NCBI GenBank assembly: GCA_945860865.1
Contig: CAMARW010000005.1
Span: 4,364-68,363, forward strand
DNA from: Chitinophaga pinensis
GTDB lineage: Bacteria; Bacteroidota; Bacteroidia; UKL13-3
Direction of reading: 5' to 3'
Length of the DNA: 64,000 bases
The notes under the pieces were generated by a model that ran no database searches, was not told the origin of the DNA, and saw nothing but the letters and a program-made list of their open reading frames with translations. Positions 6,841 to 36,330 of this stretch are shown in pieces; the first letter of the stretch is position 1, and the number at the start of each line of letters is the position of its first letter. The position numbers and the translations under genes were made by a program.

Positions 6841-8041
6841 TTACATGGAAAATACTTTAGGAAATTACGACCATAAATCTGAATATACCACGTTAAATCT
6901 GGGGCCAACACACCCAGCAACACACGGTATTTTCCAGAATATTCTTACCATGGATGGTGAGATTATTGTAGATACAGAGCAAACTTGCGGATATATTCAT
7001 AGGGCATTTGAGAAAATTGCCGAACACCGTCCGTTTTACCAAGTTACACCGCTAACCGATAGGTTAAATTATTGTTCATCGCCCATTAATAATATGGGAT
7101 GGCACATGACGGTTGAGAAATTACTAGGTGTTGAAACGCCAAAGCGCGTAGATTACATGCGTGTAATTATTATGGAATTGGCCAGAATATCCGACCATTT
7201 AGTTTGTAATTCAGTAATTGGTGTGGATGTAGGTGCACTTACTGGCTTTACTTACGTGTTTCAATGGCGTGAGCATATATATGATATTTTTGAAGAAATA
7301 TGTGGTGCTAGATTAACCACTAATATCGGTAGAATTGGTGGTTTAGAACGCGATTTTTCTCCGGCTTGTATTCAAAAAATCAGGGCATTTATCAAAGATT
7401 TTCCAACAGCCTTGCGTGAGTTTACTAATTTGCTTGAACGCAACCGTATTTTCATGGATAGAACCATTGGTGCAGGACCTATAAACACAGAGCGTGCTTT
7501 GCATTATGGTTTTACTGGACCTAATTTACGTGCTACAGGTTTAGATTACGATGTGCGTGTAATGAATCCTTATAGCAGTTACCAAGATTTTGATTTTGTA
7601 ATTCCTGTGGGCATTAATGGCGATACCTACGACCGCTTTATGGTTCGTCAGCAAGAAATGTGGGAGAGTTTAAAAATTATATCTGCTGCATTAGAAAATT
7701 TACCTGAAGGAAAATTCTTTGCAGAGGTTCCTGAGTTTTACTTGCCTCCAAAACAAGAGGTTTATAACAATATGGAAGCTTTAATTTGGCATTTCAAAAT
7801 TGTTATGGGCGAAGCCGATGTGCCAGTAGGAGAGGTTTACCACGCGGTTGAAGGTGGCAATGGAGAATTGGGTTATTACCTAGTAAGTGATGGAGGAAGA
7901 GCAGCCTATCGTTTGCATTTCCGCCGACCATGTTTTATTTATTACCAAGGTTACCCAGAAATGATTAAGGGCTCCACTTTAAGTGATGCCATCGTAACCT
8001 TAAGTAGTTTAAACGTAATTGCTGGAGAATTGGATGCTTAA
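6830..8041 (+). CDS. nuoD: NADH-quinone oxidoreductase subunit D
   Basis: 403 aa. 49-kDa subunit, with typical LGPTHPATHG and RxxxLERxxH motifs. Confidence 0.95.
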   Translation: MEGNYMENTLGNYDHKSEYTTLNLGPTHPATHGIFQNILTMDGEIIVDTEQTCGYIHRAFEKIAEHRPFYQVTPLTDRLNYCSSPINNMGWHMTVEKLLGVETPKRVDYMRVIIMELARISDHLVCNSVIGVDVGALTGFTYVFQWREHIYDIFEEICGARLTTNIGRIGGLERDFSPACIQKIRAFIKDFPTALREFTNLLERNRIFMDRTIGAGPINTERALHYGFTGPNLRATGLDYDVRVMNPYSSYQDFDFVIPVGINGDTYDRFMVRQQEMWESLKIISAALENLPEGKFFAEVPEFYLPPKQEVYNNMEALIWHFKIVMGEADVPVGEVYHAVEGGNGELGYYLVSDGGRAAYRLHFRRPCFIYYQGYPEMIKGSTLSDAIVTLSSLNVIAGELDA

Positions 8042-8044
8042 AAA

Positions 8045-8074
8045 GTCCATAGTCCATAGACCATAGTCCATAGC
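8045..8074. repeat. tandem heptamer repeat (GTCCATA)x4, one unit reading GACCATA, between nuoD and nuoE
   Basis: The sequence reads GTCCATAGTCCATAGACCATAGTCCATAGC immediately after the nuoD stop. The same heptamer family recurs at 25710-25803 and 26293-26416. Confidence 0.8.
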
Positions 8075-8109
8075 AAAAGCACTAACGACCAAAGACAAAA
8101 GACCAAACA

Positions 8110-8646
8110 ATGAGTGATATAAAATTTAGTGATGAAACATTAGCGGTTGCCAATAAAATTATTGCCAGATATCCGGAGGGTAAGCAAAAGTCGGCATTGA
8201 TTCCTCTATTGCATTTGGCTCAGGCCGAATTTGACGGATGGTTAAGTCCGGCAGCAATGGATTATGTGGCTTCTTTGCTTAATATACAAAACATAGAAGC
8301 CTACGAAGTGGCCTCATTTTATTCGATGTTCAACTTGCAACCTGTTGGCAAATGTTTGATAGAAGTTTGCAGAACCAGCAGTTGTTGGTTGCGTGGTGCT
8401 AATGAGGTAATTCAACACTTAGAAAATAAATTGGGTATTAAAGAGGGTGAAACTTCTACAGATGGTATGTTTACCCTCAAGGCTGTAGAGTGTTTGGGTA
8501 GTTGTGGTACCGCTCCAATGATGATGATTGGCGCTCAGTTTCATGAAAATTTAACACATGAAAAGGTGGATGCTATCCTCGAAACTTGCAAACAAGAAGG
8601 CAAGCGCAAAACATATTTAGATAATGTAGTGGTTGATAAATATTAA
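8110..8646 (+). CDS. nuoE: NADH-quinone oxidoreductase subunit E
   Basis: 178 aa. 24-kDa subunit with a thioredoxin-like 2Fe-2S fold (CxxxxC...CLGSCGTAP). Confidence 0.9.
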   Translation: MSDIKFSDETLAVANKIIARYPEGKQKSALIPLLHLAQAEFDGWLSPAAMDYVASLLNIQNIEAYEVASFYSMFNLQPVGKCLIEVCRTSSCWLRGANEVIQHLENKLGIKEGETSTDGMFTLKAVECLGSCGTAPMMMIGAQFHENLTHEKVDAILETCKQEGKRKTYLDNVVVDKY

Positions 8647-9973: not shown

Positions 9974-10133
9974 AATATTGAAGAAACTAAGGAGATAGTC
10001 TATGCTGCTAAAAGTTTTGGCATATTCAGACAATTTAATTCTTGATATTGAAAGTGAAATAAAAAAATAAATGATAATTAAACATTCCTACTATCAATCT
10101 TGATTTTAGAGAGTGGATTAAATAAAATTGTAA

Positions 10134-25030: not shown

Positions 25031-25705
25031 ATGCAAGTTGATGTTTTAACTTTATTTCCCCAAATTTTTAACGGGCCTTTTTCTGAATCCATCATTAAAC
25101 GTGCCATTGAACGTAAATTGGTTTCCATTAACTTACACAATGTTAGGGATTATTCTTTGTCTAAACACAAGAATGTAGACGATTATCCTTTTGGTGGTGG
25201 CGCCGGAATGGTGATGCAAATTGAACCGATTCACAGGTGTATAGATGCCTTAAAAGAACAAGGTTCTTATGATGAGGTTATTTATATGAGTCCAGATGGG
25301 GAACCTTTTACGCAGAAAATTGCCAATGAATTATCTACGAAAAATAAGCTCATTTTTTTGTGTGGCCACTATAAAGGGGTAGATGAGCGCGTACGCGAAC
25401 ATCTGGTAACGCGCGAATTAAGCTTGGGAGATTTTGTACTTACAGGTGGTGAAATTGCCGCTGCTGCCATGATAGATGCCATAGTACGTTTAATACCTGG
25501 CACCCTCAACGATGAAACTTCGGCCCTAAGCGATTCGTTCCAAGATGATTTAATTAGTCCGCCCGTATACACCCGCCCAGCAGATTATAATGGTTGGAAG
25601 GTTCCGGAAGTTTTATTGTCTGGTCACCAAGCTAAAATTGATGAATGGCGCCATGAGCAAAGTTTGGCTCGAACCAAAGAAAGACGCCCTAATTTAGGAG
25701 AGTAG
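25031..25705 (+). CDS. trmD: tRNA (guanine37-N1)-methyltransferase
   Basis: 224 aa. TrmD SPOUT signature (VDVLTLFPQ...FGGGAGMVM). Confidence 0.95.
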   Translation: MQVDVLTLFPQIFNGPFSESIIKRAIERKLVSINLHNVRDYSLSKHKNVDDYPFGGGAGMVMQIEPIHRCIDALKEQGSYDEVIYMSPDGEPFTQKIANELSTKNKLIFLCGHYKGVDERVREHLVTRELSLGDFVLTGGEIAAAAMIDAIVRLIPGTLNDETSALSDSFQDDLISPPVYTRPADYNGWKVPEVLLSGHQAKIDEWRHEQSLARTKERRPNLGE

Positions 25706-25709
25706 TGTT

Positions 25710-25812
25710 TATGGTCCATGGTCCATAGACCAATTGAATTAAATTTTATTGTATAAGCATCTGTAATACAATGACTATGGACTATGGACTATGGGCCATG
25801 GACTTTTTTTTT
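25710..25812. repeat. inverted pair of heptamer-repeat arms with a T-run
   Basis: Left arm TATGGTCCATGGTCCATAGACC at 25710-25731. Right arm GACTATGGACTATGGACTATGGGCCATGGAC at 25773-25803, which is the reverse-complement orientation of (GTCCATA)n. A 41-nt spacer separates them. Nine T residues follow at 25804-25812, so the element is likely also a trmD terminator. Confidence 0.75.
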
Positions 25813-25880
25813 AGCTTCTCTTTTGTATTTAAATGAAAAAGTCTATTTTCGCAGTCCGATTTTTAGAAAAGAATAGCAAC

Positions 25881-26228: not shown

Positions 26229-26250
26229 AAATTAAATAACTTAAGCAATA

Positions 26251-26290
26251 GACCCCGGCTCATTCATTTGGGTCGGGGTTTTTGTTTGAA
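26251..26290 (+). terminator. rho-independent terminator of rplS
   Basis: Stem GACCCCG...CGGGGTC with a loop, followed by TTTTTGTTTG. Confidence 0.7.
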
Positions 26291-26292
26291 AT

Positions 26293-26416
26293 GCATAGTC
26301 CATAGACCATAGTCCATGGATTACAGGCGATAGTTATAGATTTGATGCAAAGAGAAACGGATTAAAAAATCATAGAAAAACAAAAACTATGGTCTATGGT
26401 CTATGGACTATCGACC
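26293..26416. repeat. inverted pair of heptamer-repeat arms flanking a 66-nt spacer
   Basis: Left arm GCATAGTCCATAGACCATAGTCCATGGA at 26293-26320. Right arm CTATGGTCTATGGTCTATGGACTATCGACC at 26387-26416. It lies between the rplS terminator and the valS start. Confidence 0.75.
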
Positions 26417-26440
26417 AAAAAAGAGATCAACTACCAAAAA

Positions 26441-29086
26441 ATGAACGAATTAGCAAAAACATATACGCCACAAGATTTTGAAGATAAGTGGTATGCTTAT
26501 TGGTTAAACCAAAAGTTTTTTCATGCCGAGCCCAATCCGGATAAAGAGCCATATACTATTGTAATTCCGCCGCCAAATGTTACGGGAGTTTTGCATATGG
26601 GCCATATGCTTAATAATACCATTCAAGACGTTTTGGTGCGCAGGGCCCGCATGCAAGGTAAAAATGCCTGCTGGGTGCCTGGAACAGACCATGCTTCTAT
26701 TGCTACAGAAGCCAAGGTTGTTCAATTATTGCGTGAACAAGGAATTAAAAAATCTGATTTAAGTAGAGAAGATTTTTTAAAGCATGCCTACTCTTGGAAA
26801 GAAAAGTATGGTGGAATTATCTTAGAACAGCTTAAAAAGTTAGGTGCTAGTTGCGACTGGGATAGAACACGTTTTACGATGGAACCTAAGTTAAGCGAGG
26901 CTGTTATTGATGTGTTTATTGATATGTACAATAAGGGCTTAATATACCGTGGTTTGCGCATGGTAAATTGGGATCCGCAGGGTAAAACAGCCTTGAGTGA
27001 TGAAGAAGTAATACACAAAGAAGTACAATCTAAGTTATATTATATCAAGTATTTTATGGCAGATGGCAGCGGTAATTATGTTACCATTGCTACCACTAGG
27101 CCAGAGACTATATTGGCTGATGTGGCTATTTGCGTTCATCCTTCAGATGAGCGCTATAAACACCTATTAGGTCAAAAATGCTTGGTTCCATTTATCCATA
27201 GAGAGATTCCAATTATAGCCGATGAATATATAGATCCAGCTTTTGGTACAGGTTGTTTAAAGGTAACACCCGCGCACGATCCAAATGATTATCTTATAGG
27301 ACAAAAGCATGGTTTAGAGGTAATTGATGTATTAAATGAGGATGGGTTTTTAAATGAAAATGCACTGGATGCCAGGTATATTGGTAAAGATAGATTTGCA
27401 GTTAGGAAGCAAATTGCCATTGATTTAGAGGAAGCCGGACATATTGAAAAAATTGAGGAACACAAAAACCAAGTTGGAACTAGTGAGCGAACGGGCGCTG
27501 TAATAGAGCCACGTTTGAGTTTGCAATGGTGGGTAGATATGAAGAAATTTATGGCCAGAAACCCGCAAGTATTAGATGCGGTAATGAGCGATGAAATTCA
27601 ATTTCACCCGGCTAAAATGAAAAATACCTACAAACACTGGATAGATAATATCAAAGATTGGTGTATTAGCAGGCAGCTTTGGTGGGGACAACAAATTCCG
27701 GCTTGGTACGATGAAAGTGGAAATCTTGTTGCTGTTGCAAAAACCGAAGCCGAAGCCATGGAAGTTTTAAAAGCCAGAGGCCAAGAGCCAATTGCTAACA
27801 GCTTAAAACAAGACGAAGACGTTTTAGACACTTGGTTTAGTTCTTGGTTATGGCCAATTTCTGTGTTTGATGGTTTTGAAGACCCTGAAAATGCAGATAT
27901 TAAACATTTTTATCCAACCAATGATTTAGTTACGGCACCAGAAATTATGTTTTTCTGGGTGTTTAGAATGATCATGGCAGGATACGAATGGCGAGGCGAA
28001 AAACCGTTTAGCAATGTATATTATACCGGTATTGTGAGGGATAAGCAACGCCGAAAAATGAGTAAGTCTTTAGGTAACTCACCCGACCCACTAGACCTTA
28101 TTGCCAAATATGGCGCAGATGGGGTTCGTATGGGCATGTTGCTTTGTTCTCCTGCCGGAAATGATATCTTGTTTGATGACAGTCAGGTTGAGCAAGGAAG
28201 AAATTTTGCCAATAAAATCTGGAATGCGTTTAGGTTGGTAAAAGGCTGGGAAGTGAAGCCAGATAGTGGGTTCAGCCCAGAGATTATTGTGGCCAACCAA
28301 ACCAGTGCGCGTTGGTTTGCAGCTAGGTTACATGATGCTTTGCTTGATATTGAAGAGAAGTACAAAGGATACCGATTAAGTGAAGCTTTAATGAGCATTT
28401 ACAAACTTATTTGGGACGATTTTTGTGCTTGGTATTTAGAAATGGTGAAGCCAGTTTATGGCGAACCAATGAACGAAAGTACTTACCAAACTACCTTGTC
28501 ATTTTTTGAAGAATTGATGAAGGTTTTGCATCCTTTTATGCCATTTATTACCGAAGAAATTTGGCAAAATATGGCTGAACGCAAAGCGGGTGAATCTATT
28601 TGTGTGGCCAATTACCCTGTGGCTATTGGGGTAAGTGCGCCTGATTTATCGCGTGTTTTTGAAAGCATTCAGCAAATAAGAAACCTTAGAAATGCCAAAG
28701 GATTAAGTCCGAAAGAGGCTTTTGAAATATACATTAAAGCCAAAGATCAAAGCTTATATGCGCCATTTGTTTTCTTGTTAAAAAAATTAGCCAATGTTAG
28801 TGCTATTCATTTTGTAGACGCTCAACCGCAGGGAAGCACCTTGTTACCTGTAGATACCGATGAACTCTTTGTGGTATTAAATTTACAAGTAGATGAAGCC
28901 GCCGAGCGCGAGAAAATGGAAAAGGAAATTGAATACCTAGAAGGTTTCATGAAATCTGTGGATGCCAAGTTAAGCAACGAAAAATTTGTTGCCAACGCCA
29001 AGCCAGAATTGGTAGAAAAAGAGCGTCAGAAAAAAGCAGATGCCGCCGCCAAAATTGAAATATTAAGAAAGAGTTTAGAAGGATAA
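26441..29086 (+). CDS. valS: valine--tRNA ligase
   Basis: Class I aminoacyl-tRNA synthetase motifs HMGH and KMSKS are present. Start chosen at MNELAKTY (26441) rather than the track's 26396, which lies inside the repeat. Confidence 0.97.
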   Translation: MNELAKTYTPQDFEDKWYAYWLNQKFFHAEPNPDKEPYTIVIPPPNVTGVLHMGHMLNNTIQDVLVRRARMQGKNACWVPGTDHASIATEAKVVQLLREQGIKKSDLSREDFLKHAYSWKEKYGGIILEQLKKLGASCDWDRTRFTMEPKLSEAVIDVFIDMYNKGLIYRGLRMVNWDPQGKTALSDEEVIHKEVQSKLYYIKYFMADGSGNYVTIATTRPETILADVAICVHPSDERYKHLLGQKCLVPFIHREIPIIADEYIDPAFGTGCLKVTPAHDPNDYLIGQKHGLEVIDVLNEDGFLNENALDARYIGKDRFAVRKQIAIDLEEAGHIEKIEEHKNQVGTSERTGAVIEPRLSLQWWVDMKKFMARNPQVLDAVMSDEIQFHPAKMKNTYKHWIDNIKDWCISRQLWWGQQIPAWYDESGNLVAVAKTEAEAMEVLKARGQEPIANSLKQDEDVLDTWFSSWLWPISVFDGFEDPENADIKHFYPTNDLVTAPEIMFFWVFRMIMAGYEWRGEKPFSNVYYTGIVRDKQRRKMSKSLGNSPDPLDLIAKYGADGVRMGMLLCSPAGNDILFDDSQVEQGRNFANKIWNAFRLVKGWEVKPDSGFSPEIIVANQTSARWFAARLHDALLDIEEKYKGYRLSEALMSIYKLIWDDFCAWYLEMVKPVYGEPMNESTYQTTLSFFEELMKVLHPFMPFITEEIWQNMAERKAGESICVANYPVAIGVSAPDLSRVFESIQQIRNLRNAKGLSPKEAFEIYIKAKDQSLYAPFVFLLKKLANVSAIHFVDAQPQGSTLLPVDTDELFVVLNLQVDEAAEREKMEKEIEYLEGFMKSVDAKLSNEKFVANAKPELVEKERQKKADAAAKIEILRKSLEG

Positions 29087-34649: not shown

Positions 34650-34684
34650 TGCCGAATATAGCAAAAATTTGAAATGTGCCGTCG

Positions 34685-34704
34685 GGGCGGAATATTTTCC
34701 GCCC
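34685..34704. repeat. GC-rich hairpin GGGCGGAA-TATT-TTCCGCCC
   Basis: 8-bp stem with a 4-nt loop, about 35 nt upstream of the GH92 start codon. It is a near-identical twin of the hairpin at 34753-34774. Confidence 0.7.
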
Positions 34705-34752: not shown

Positions 34753-34774
34753 GGGGCGGAAAATATTCCGCCCC
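34753..34774. repeat. GC-rich hairpin GGGGCGGAA-AATA-TTCCGCCCC abutting the porX stop codon
   Basis: 9-bp stem with a 4-nt loop. The stop codon at 34774-34776 shares one base with the stem. A possible terminator, but it lacks a U-tract. Confidence 0.7.
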
Positions 34775-36330
34775 TACGATGGTTTCGTTTCCATTACCAC
34801 AAATGGCACAATCATTTCTTCCAAACTTATGCCGCCATGTTGAAACGAATTATTATACATTTTAACATGGTAATTATAGTTGTTTGGGTAGGCCATAAAG
34901 TCTTCGCCCATCGCAAAAACGTAGCTGCTGCTCATATTTTGTTTGGGTAAAAATGCATCAGCCGGATTTTTTACCGAGAACAATTCTTTTTCGTTATAAC
35001 TTAGGTTTCTGCCTTGCTTATACCTTAAATTGGTGCTCGTACTTCTGTCGCCCACAATTTTAACGGGATTATTAACACGTATAGAACCGTGGTCGGTTGT
35101 AATTACAATGCGGGCTTTTTTAGAAGCAATTTTTTTAATAGCTTCATACAAGGGAGAGTGCTCAAACCATGAGGCAGTAATGCTTCTATAGGCCGCTTCG
35201 TTTTCAGCTAGTTCCTTCATTACATTCATTTCGGTTCGGGCATGAGATAGCATATCTACAAAATTATAAACTATTACATTCAACTTATTGTGCCACATGT
35301 TGGGAACGGCATCTACCAAATCTTTGCCTGCATTAAGGTTAGTAATTTTGGTGTAAGAAAATTTATCTTTTATGCCTGCCCGCAATAATTGCCTGCCTAA
35401 AAGGTCTTCTTCATGTATATTTTTACCTTCCTCATCCTCCTCATTTACCCATAGATTGGGATATAATTTTTCAATTTCTAAAGGTAGCATGCCGGCAAAA
35501 AAACTATTACGTGCGTAGTGGGTGGTTGTAGGTAAAATGGTCATATAGGTTTCTTCCTGAACCAAATTAAACAACTCATTCAAGGTGTTTTGTACCACCT
35601 TCCATTGGTCGAACCTAAAGTTGTCTATCAATATTAAAAAGGTAGGTGTTTCATCTTTTAACAGCGGTATAAGTTTTTTGTTAACCACGGTATGGCTCAT
35701 TACAGGCGTTTGGGCATCAGGTCTTTTGAGGAAATTAATGAAATTATCTTTTACAAACTTACTCCAGCCATTGTTGGCATCTCTCTTTTGCATGGCTAAA
35801 ATTTCATCCATGCCAGTTTCGCCACTTTTGGCCAATTCTAGTTCCCAGTAAATAAGTTTACGATACATGGTAGACCAACCCTCAAAACTATTAACATCAG
35901 ATAAATCCATGCTTAGTTGTCTAAATTCTTGCTGGTAATTTTGGGCTGTTTTTTCGGTAACCAATTGCTTACCGTCTAAAATACGTTTTAGCGAAAGTAA
36001 AATTTGGTTGCTATTTACGGGTTTTATTAAATAATCGGCAATTTGATTACCAATAGCATCCTCCATAATATGCTCTTCTTCGCTTTTAGTAATCATTACA
36101 ACAGGCACTTCTGGCCTAATTAGTTTAATTTGAAGGAGGGTTTCAATGCCTGAAATACCAGGCATGTTTTCGTCTAAAAAAATTACATCATATTTATTAG
36201 TTCTAACTTTTTCAAGTGCATCTACACCATTAGTTGCTTTATCTACCGTGTAGCCTTTATTAGTTAAAAATAAAATATGTGGTTTTAGTAAATCAATTTC
36301 ATCATCTGTCCAAAGAATATTAACAGTCAT
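34774..36330 (-). CDS. porX: PorX-type response regulator (CheY-like receiver fused to a PglZ/alkaline-phosphatase-like domain)
   Basis: 518 aa. The N-terminus ILWTDDEIDLLKPHILFL and the receiver aspartate region (VIFLDENMPGISG) match the PorX regulators of type IX secretion as I remember them. The C-terminal half is PglZ-like. Confidence 0.8.
   Translation of the reverse strand: MTVNILWTDDEIDLLKPHILFLTNKGYTVDKATNGVDALEKVRTNKYDVIFLDENMPGISGIETLLQIKLIRPEVPVVMITKSEEEHIMEDAIGNQIADYLIKPVNSNQILLSLKRILDGKQLVTEKTAQNYQQEFRQLSMDLSDVNSFEGWSTMYRKLIYWELELAKSGETGMDEILAMQKRDANNGWSKFVKDNFINFLKRPDAQTPVMSHTVVNKKLIPLLKDETPTFLILIDNFRFDQWKVVQNTLNELFNLVQEETYMTILPTTTHYARNSFFAGMLPLEIEKLYPNLWVNEEDEEGKNIHEEDLLGRQLLRAGIKDKFSYTKITNLNAGKDLVDAVPNMWHNKLNVIVYNFVDMLSHARTEMNVMKELAENEAAYRSITASWFEHSPLYEAIKKIASKKARIVITTDHGSIRVNNPVKIVGDRSTSTNLRYKQGRNLSYNEKELFSVKNPADAFLPKQNMSSSYVFAMGEDFMAYPNNYNYHVKMYNNSFQHGGISLEEMIVPFVVMETKPS

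Follow-up and report, generated by a model that had tools for sequence, protein, structure and literature searches.

What are short runs of one seven-nucleotide unit doing in the gap between nuoD and nuoE, and again on either side of rplS, in a Bacteroidota genome? Heptamers are the most abundant class of long simple sequence repeats (SSRs) in most genomes, and polymerase slippage is their proposed cause (PMC4679880, PMC4692102). The origin and function of heptamer tandem repeats are nevertheless unsettled, despite their abundance in most bacterial genomes surveyed. We have analysed a stretch of 64,000 nucleotides, referred to below as the window, in which an earlier sequence-only reading had described runs of GTCCATA and GACCATA at three loci. 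Genes were identified through Pfam matches on the same genes in matching contigs, the families seen being Complex1_49kDa, 2Fe-2S_thioredx, tRNA_m1G_MT, Ribosomal_L19 and tRNA-synt_1.

Tandem heptamers are confined to three intergenic sites

The window carries five arrays of the unit NCCATRG (GTCCATA/GACCATA) at three intergenic sites: one solo array between nuoD and nuoE, and two inverted pairs, one between trmD and rplS and the other between rplS and valS. The sequence matches the runs reported in the sequence-only reading exactly, and the intergenic character that it had ascribed to the family is borne out, with all three loci lying in the approximately 7% of the window that is non-coding. 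The same reading had raised the doubt that the heptamer might merely occur at random frequency. This is close to the truth for the single heptamer, which has 9 matches in the window versus 5.1 expected and so is not enriched, but not for its tandem form. The tandem pattern CCATRGNCCATRG has 11 matches versus 0.03 expected, a count that none of 100 shuffles reaches, and all 11 are confined to the three array loci.

The seven-nucleotide period is equally specific. TRF finds period 7, with 2.3-4.6 copies, at the five array places, and among window arrays of at least three copies there are five at period 7 and none at period 6 or at periods 8-11. In a comparison set of 182 kb of unselected Bacteroidota rplS loci the corresponding count is one, versus five in the window. 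The array loci amount to three per 64 kb, with none in a further 5.9 kb of the same genome.

The nuoD-nuoE array extends a heptamer-periodic spacer

The solo array, GTCCATA GTCCATA GACCATA GTCCATA G (positions 8045-8073, + strand), begins 3 nt past the nuoD stop codon (TAA at 8039-8041, followed by AAA) and has no inverted partner. Directly adjoining it is a degenerate A-rich tract of heptamers that the sequence-only reading did not mention: GCAAAAG CACTAAC GACCAAA GACAAAA GACCAAA (8074-8107, + strand; TRF period 7, 4.7 copies), which nearly reaches the nuoE ATG at 8110. GACCAAA and GACCATA are one base apart. Since the GTCCATA array precedes a GACCAAA tract that is a single substitution away from one of its own units, the nuoD-nuoE spacer as a whole is an evolving heptamer repeat region.

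The four units recur unchanged in contigs whose NuoE is identical, the one exception being strain L006, with three units and a SNP close by. Among relatives whose NuoE is 87-92% identical, the spacer lengths are 33, 55 and 66 nt, and all of these spacers are heptamer-periodic; the full range extends from a minimal state of 33 nt, in which GTCCA is present once, to 55-68 nt. The minimal spacer of one relative reads AAA GTCCAAA GACAAAC GACTAAA TAACAAA, another relative has four GTCCATA-type units and then GACCAAA GACTAAA GACTAAA, and a third spacer type runs TTTATAG TCGATAG and onwards to three copies of ACCAAAG. These GACTAAA and ACCAAAG arrays occupy the same place as the degenerate tract of the window. 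The array had originally been portrayed as sitting inside a normally tight junction. As the spacers of relatives are already heptamer-periodic and 33-66 nt long, we see in it an expansion of an existing spacer, not an intrusion. The RNA of the array is unstructured (z -0.45); the array would seem to lengthen, without a fold of its own, the A-rich and heptamer-periodic spacer before nuoE.

A separate observation concerns the nuoF-nuoG gap (9974-10133 in the window), which spans 160 nt and holds non-coding sequence only. Sister lineages have a nucleotidyltransferase gene (NTP_transf_2) between nuoF and nuoG (L323:11876-12462, L325:11876-12184, L327:11898-12537), beside which a HepT-like partner is encoded in all of them except L325/L326. 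Such NTP_transf_2 and HepT-like genes inside the nuo operon resemble an MNT/HEPN toxin-antitoxin pair.

The trmD-rplS hairpin changes by whole units between strains

Downstream of the trmD stop codon (25703-25705) there follow, in this order, a left arm, TATGGTC CATGGTC CATAGAC CA (25710-25732, + strand); an AT-rich core that contains an inner stem-loop in the RNA fold (ATTGTATAA...ATACAAT; 25733-25771, + strand); an inverted right arm (25772-25803, - strand), whose + strand units CTATGGA, CTATGGG and CCATGGA are the reverse complement of the family unit; and a T9 tract (25804-25812, + strand). Folded as RNA, the segment 25707-25803 forms a hairpin of -43.7 kcal/mol (z -7.35) with its base abutting U9. 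This is the geometry of an intrinsic terminator, that is, a stable stem and then a U tract, on the strand of the gene and downstream of it, and it is present at the trmD-rplS element only, the rplS-valS and nuoD-nuoE elements being without it. Judging by this geometry, the hairpin together with U9 would most likely terminate the trmD transcript or stabilise its 3' end. In the sister species, several variants leave about 10 nt between the end of the main stem and the T tract, and past the stem there are only a few weak pairs.

A T run follows only 2 of 22 inverted pairs (20 from other genomes and the two in the window), so terminator geometry belongs to the trmD site and does not characterise the family. 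We have therefore dropped the idea that the inverted pairs in general act as terminators. The terminator module contemplated in the sequence-only reading fits trmD, with its hairpin and U9, and neither of the other two sites.

The contigs with an identical L19 represent a sister species, with approximately 87% nucleotide identity to the window and 97-99.7% within itself. Both rplS-flanking elements are present in it, with cores conserved at approximately 87% nucleotide identity, and since the cores are the same, the elements predate the split between the two species. The arms of its trmD-rplS element vary independently of each other in 7-nt steps, with 2, 3, 4 or 6 units on the left and 2-3 on the right, while the core and T9 are fixed; over strains that are 98-99.7% identical the ranges are 2-6 and 2-4 units. 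The T9 downstream of trmD is invariant in all strains, including one in which the hairpin has been replaced (see below), and every strain variant at the trmD-rplS slot still folds, at -24 to -45 kcal/mol. Among six assemblies of the window's own species the trmD-rplS element is identical and there is no copy-number change; hence, the arrays are not hypervariable everywhere. Relatives with 78-84% L19 protein identity keep the trmD-rplS-valS synteny, and both elements are absent from them. Absence from close relatives, which had been put forward as a sign of a recent local event, is accordingly found in part: the elements are shared with the sister species and missing at 78-84% identity.

Between the hairpin and rplS we also observe a motif, TTTCGCAGTCC (25843-25860), which precedes the rplS start by about 25-35 nt and is conserved in relatives down to 78% L19 identity (including L237-L240); it could belong to the promoter or leader of rplS.

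Other heptamers occupy the same slots

In one sister-species contig, L231, the interval from the trmD stop to T9 is taken by a different 120-nt sequence with a different core (L231:1291-1430, orthologous to window 25706-25803). The arms of this replacement are built of other heptamers (CTAAAGG, CCAATAG and CCAAAGG), and its flanks are identical to those of the other strains right to the boundaries, the trmD stop on one side and T9 on the other. Folding everything from the trmD stop to the end of the T tract gives -37.9 kcal/mol, and folding a slightly longer stretch -43.7 kcal/mol. The 14-mer CTAAAGGCCAATAG, typical of L231, occurs neither in the window nor in any other locus compared. The left end of the L231 contig contains another strongly divergent block, of 200 bp. 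In our reading the L231 hairpin is an allele that was probably imported by homologous recombination from an unsampled relative, in which case the conserved trmD end and the rplS promoter region could have served as recombination anchors. If so, the species keep a hairpin at the trmD-rplS slot while its sequence turns over.

L237, with 84% L19 identity, is without the GTCCATA element and has an inverted pair of other heptamers between the rplS terminator and valS (L237:1610-1740), in which AAATCCG/AAATTCG units face TTTCGAA.

The rplS-valS element and the start of valS

rplS is followed by a canonical GC-rich intrinsic terminator (26250-26281, + strand), and the second heptamer element lies downstream of it. 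Its left arm reads GCATAGT CCATAGA CCATAGT CCATGG (26293-26319, + strand), its core extends over 26320-26386 (+ strand), and its right arm, CTATGGT CTATGGT CTATGGA CTATCGA CC (26387-26416, - strand), ends 24 nt before the valS ATG at 26441. When the two rplS-flanking elements are compared only the arms match, the cores being unrelated. On its own the rplS-valS hairpin folds at -41.2 kcal/mol and has no U tract; the arms of the sister species pair less well, at -32 kcal/mol. It appears to be a hairpin in the valS leader without an evident role.

A candidate Bacteroidetes-type promoter at TAGATTTG in the rplS-valS core was also considered. We make no claim for it: the TAnnTTTG motif is not enriched in the window (100 matches versus 106 expected) and the two-box Bacteroidetes-type pattern has no match near any of the elements.

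The arrays matter for annotation, as they bring ATG or TAG in every frame. The right arm supplies ATG in all three frames, and this property of the CTATGG orientation would account for the alternative valS start at 26396 that some gene callers use. This ATG lies within the right arm and is in frame with valS (window 26396-26443). The valS calls in matching contigs differ, 893 aa from 26396 versus 880 aa from 26441, so the arrays are already misleading calls of the valS start.

Two further observations concern sequence at array ends and elsewhere in the window. A degenerate unit, GTCGATAG (CTATCGAC on the other strand), is seen at the outer ends of arrays in several Bacteroidota genomes (window 26410-26416; L031, L098, L086, L027, L327). 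At a gene boundary further downstream, two 25-nt arms (34680-34704 and 34754-34778) are 96% complementary and 49 nt apart; each is a GC-rich palindrome (GGGGCGGAATATTTTCCGCCC), and together they resemble a duplicated terminator hairpin.

The same heptamer in other genomes

The genome collection has at least 120 stretches with three tandem copies of CCATAGN. The matches listed come from Gemmatimonadales, Nostocales and other cyanobacteria, several Bacteroidota (among them two Sediminibacterium MAGs, each with several loci), Chloroflexia, Omnitrophota and others. Among the matches listed, period 7 dominates, with 253 arrays, whereas period 6 has 38 and period 8 has 13; approximately 116 of the 253 period-7 arrays in these listed loci have a unit other than the target. 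Across the 120 listed loci, 22% of arrays fall in long open frames versus 81% of random sites, and an inverted pair within 300 bp is found at 20 of the 120. The spacers between the arms in these other genomes have no shared core, and their length varies from 0 nt, where the arms form a perfect palindrome around CCATGG, to about 170 nt. In the Sediminibacterium loci the palindrome centres lie at CCATGG.

Units in these loci adjoin others that are one mutational step away. In Gemmatimonadales CCCATAG adjoins CCAATAG or CCCAAAG, and in Nostocales GTCCATA adjoins GTCATTA and GTCCAAT. An Anabaena azotica locus (L123:4210-4433) has a mixed array of about 220 nt in which CTATGGA is interleaved with CTGTGGA and CTGTTGA, a one-step mutational series; rotating the classical STRR3 unit and taking its complement yields CTGTTGA. 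In Pseudopedobacter beijingensis (L015:1950-2260) a unit of about 130 bp is present in three tandem copies, each of which ends in a short CCATGG/CTATGG heptamer run.

As a control for breadth we turn to the viral collection, where two composition-matched heptamers have 26 and 60 stretches versus 15 for the target. Since the controls are as common or commoner, occurrence across phyla is no evidence of a shared element, and we rejected it as a sign of a special motif.

Origin and maintenance of the arrays

We consider it likely that the arrays are heptanucleotide SSRs with the unit NCCATRG, STRR-like in nature and specific to one freshwater Bacteroidota lineage. Whole units are gained and lost between strains, the units themselves turn over, the arrays keep to intergenic DNA and they can form hairpins. 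Unit variants spread within arrays, as with GACCATA beside GACCAAA in the window, and copy number changes by whole units, which is the signature of slippage: four units versus three between nuoD and nuoE, and 2-6 and 2-4 units in the arms of the trmD-rplS element. Replication slippage is probably how the arrays arise as well as how they change, and published work proposes that polymerase slippage favours units of 7 nt (PMC4679880, PMC4692102). In + orientation TAG falls in all three frames within three units, and this would keep arrays of that orientation out of coding DNA. Function, where there is any, is probably site-specific and secondary, with the arrays mostly neutral.

The inverted arms may have a simple origin. 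CCATAG and CTATGG are two transitions apart, and the path between them leads through one of two palindromes, CCATGG or CTATAG. Because the two forms interconvert in this way, arrays can in principle switch orientation and so give rise to inverted arms. The switch might occur by template switching at CCATGG, or by compensatory change within a hairpin that tolerates the intermediate G·U pair. The CCATGG units found at palindrome centres fit this idea. What slippage does not explain is L231, where a wholly different heptamer hairpin stands between identical flanks, and the remaining puzzle is how one heptamer hairpin is swapped for another at a fixed slot within a species.

Could the inverted pairs instead be MITEs with heptamer terminal inverted repeats that insert after gene ends, the solo array being a remnant of one? 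Both pairs have the architecture of arms plus core; the elements are absent from the same syntenic junctions at 78-84% rplS protein identity; in L231 the very same slot holds another hairpin cassette, whose boundaries are sharp; and the degenerate outer unit GTCGATAG is found time and again where arrays end, in several genomes of Bacteroidota. We nonetheless regard an origin as MITEs as unlikely. The cores in the window are unrelated, and the spacers of other genomes, from 0 to about 170 nt, have no common sequence. Neither element shows a target-site duplication, arm lengths change independently and in 7-nt steps, and none of the 10 ORFs scanned encodes a transposase. The solo nuoD-nuoE array, for its part, grades into the heptamer-periodic spacer that relatives have in situ.

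Alternatively, each heptamer could be one site for a single-strand RNA- or DNA-binding protein (CSP, S1-like or a dedicated factor), so that the arrays tune the translation or transcription of nuoE, rplS and valS. Comparable proposals have been made for the TAACTGA repeats of Beggiatoaceae and for Nostoc heptamer repeats (PMC4679880; 10.1101/2022.06.06.494920), and the arrays do lie 24-37 nt upstream of the start codons of nuoE and valS. It is the seventh base that varies and the CCATRG core that stays constant, but this conservation is partly an effect of the method used to search for arrays. Moreover, the sense-strand orientation is opposite at the two genes (GTCCATA at nuoE versus CTATGGT at valS), relatives have one unit or different heptamers at the same sites, the number of units drifts among strains, and no candidate binding protein has been identified. 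On this evidence, a role as protein-binding sites strikes us as improbable.

More speculative still, heptamer-armed hairpins might be replaceable gene-end cassettes that are kept by a dedicated process, be it hairpin-targeted mobility or templated repeat synthesis, common to STRR-bearing cyanobacteria, Gemmatimonadota and Bacteroidota. The thought is suggested by the replacement of the hairpin in L231 with one of different heptamers, and by the third heptamer pair that L237 has in the rplS-valS slot; we give it little credence.

Least probable of all, to our minds, is that the heptamer is one horizontally spread element or the product of one shared repeat-making machinery across phyla, since any heptamer would show the breadth of the at least 120 stretches in Cyanobacteria, Gemmatimonadota, Bacteroidota, Chloroflexota and others, as the viral controls indicate, and this in spite of the arms-plus-core architecture at 20 of the 120 listed loci and the place of the unit among STRR-like units in Nostocales.

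The lineage offers a small and tractable case, represented by many near-identical metagenome strains. It allows one to observe the gain and loss of units, the switching of arm orientation through CCATGG and a hairpin slot that keeps its structure while the sequence is replaced.

Comparison with known repeat families

Like REP/BIME elements and MITEs, the elements described here are extragenic, capable of forming hairpins and often located after gene ends. They differ from REP/BIME in that their arms are tandem 7-nt units of variable number and not one fixed imperfect palindrome, and from both classes in that we see no shared core, no target-site duplication and, among the 10 ORFs scanned, no RAYT or other transposase. 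The sequence-only reading had already set them apart from REP/BIME, rightly so as far as testable features go: the fixed palindrome of 20-40 nt with its conserved head is lacking, and no transposase or RAYT is found among the 10 ORFs scanned in the window (122-264 aa). As to MITEs, the lack of target-site duplication is joined by unrelated cores and by spacers of 0 to about 170 nt. A search of Rfam with the whole window and with both regions returned no match at the gathering threshold, the matches below it being to generic models of long-hairpin miRNA precursors only, far below their thresholds. In the literature searched, the GTCCATA dimer turned up in no bacterial context, only in unrelated eukaryotic primer sequences.

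The closest parallels are other heptamers, among them the heptameric long SSRs, with which the LSSR survey of Mrazek et al. from 2007 belongs. Rehm et al. (2015, PMC4692102) described two such repeats: Xanthomonas has GGGAATC, and Nostoc has GGGGA(T/C)T. As with our arrays, these are over-represented in intergenic regions, and some form inverted pairs able to fold into stem-loops (PMC4692102). They are also found in the same gene intervals of related species with differing length and sequence, for which polymerase slippage has been proposed (PMC4692102). Unlike NCCATRG, which is not G-rich and has no such potential, they are G-rich and capable of forming quadruplexes.

TAACTGA direct repeats are known from Beggiatoaceae, cyanobacteria and five Bacteroidetes (MacGregor 2015, PMC4679880), and other heptamer repeats have been noted in Gramella and Aequorivita (PMC4679880). 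The TAACTGA repeats, too, are intergenic heptamers, in 2-6 copies, often located shortly upstream of starts, including those of ribosomal protein operons, and their unit in forward orientation contains stop codons (PMC4679880). The unit itself is different, and so is the arrangement: 169 direct sets versus one indirect set have been described for TAACTGA (PMC4679880), whereas two of our three loci are inverted.

The STRR class of heterocystous cyanobacteria (PMC4692102) resembles our arrays in several respects. In Calothrix PCC 7601 and Nostoc, STRRs are non-coding tandem repeats of a 7-nt unit at dispersed loci, with mixed arrays of mutationally related units. Indeed, GTCCATA arrays adjoin the STRR-like units GTCATTA, GACCAAT and CTGTTGA at loci of Anabaena, Nostoc and Westiellopsis. 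GACCAAT is a rotation of the complement of the STRR2 unit, and GTCCATA is not known as one of the three named STRR units. The arrays here are short, with 3-4 units, and the host is an uncultured freshwater member of Bacteroidota, as indicated by a GldC-like protein encoded in the window and by the closest named homologues of its NuoE, which are labelled Bacteroidota or Bacteroidia. As both host and unit differ, the arrays are not STRRs in the strict sense.

The suggestion of a lineage-specific extragenic repeat, one of those made in the sequence-only reading, was thus right as a broad category, and its impression of an unrecognised kind of element was not. For other units, earlier work (PMC4679880, PMC4692102) has reported heptamers in Bacteroidetes, inverted pairs, positions common to related species and variation in length, and the GTCCATA arrays fit among the heptanucleotide repeats that have been described in cyanobacteria, Xanthomonas, Beggiatoaceae and some Bacteroidetes (PMC4692102, PMC4679880).
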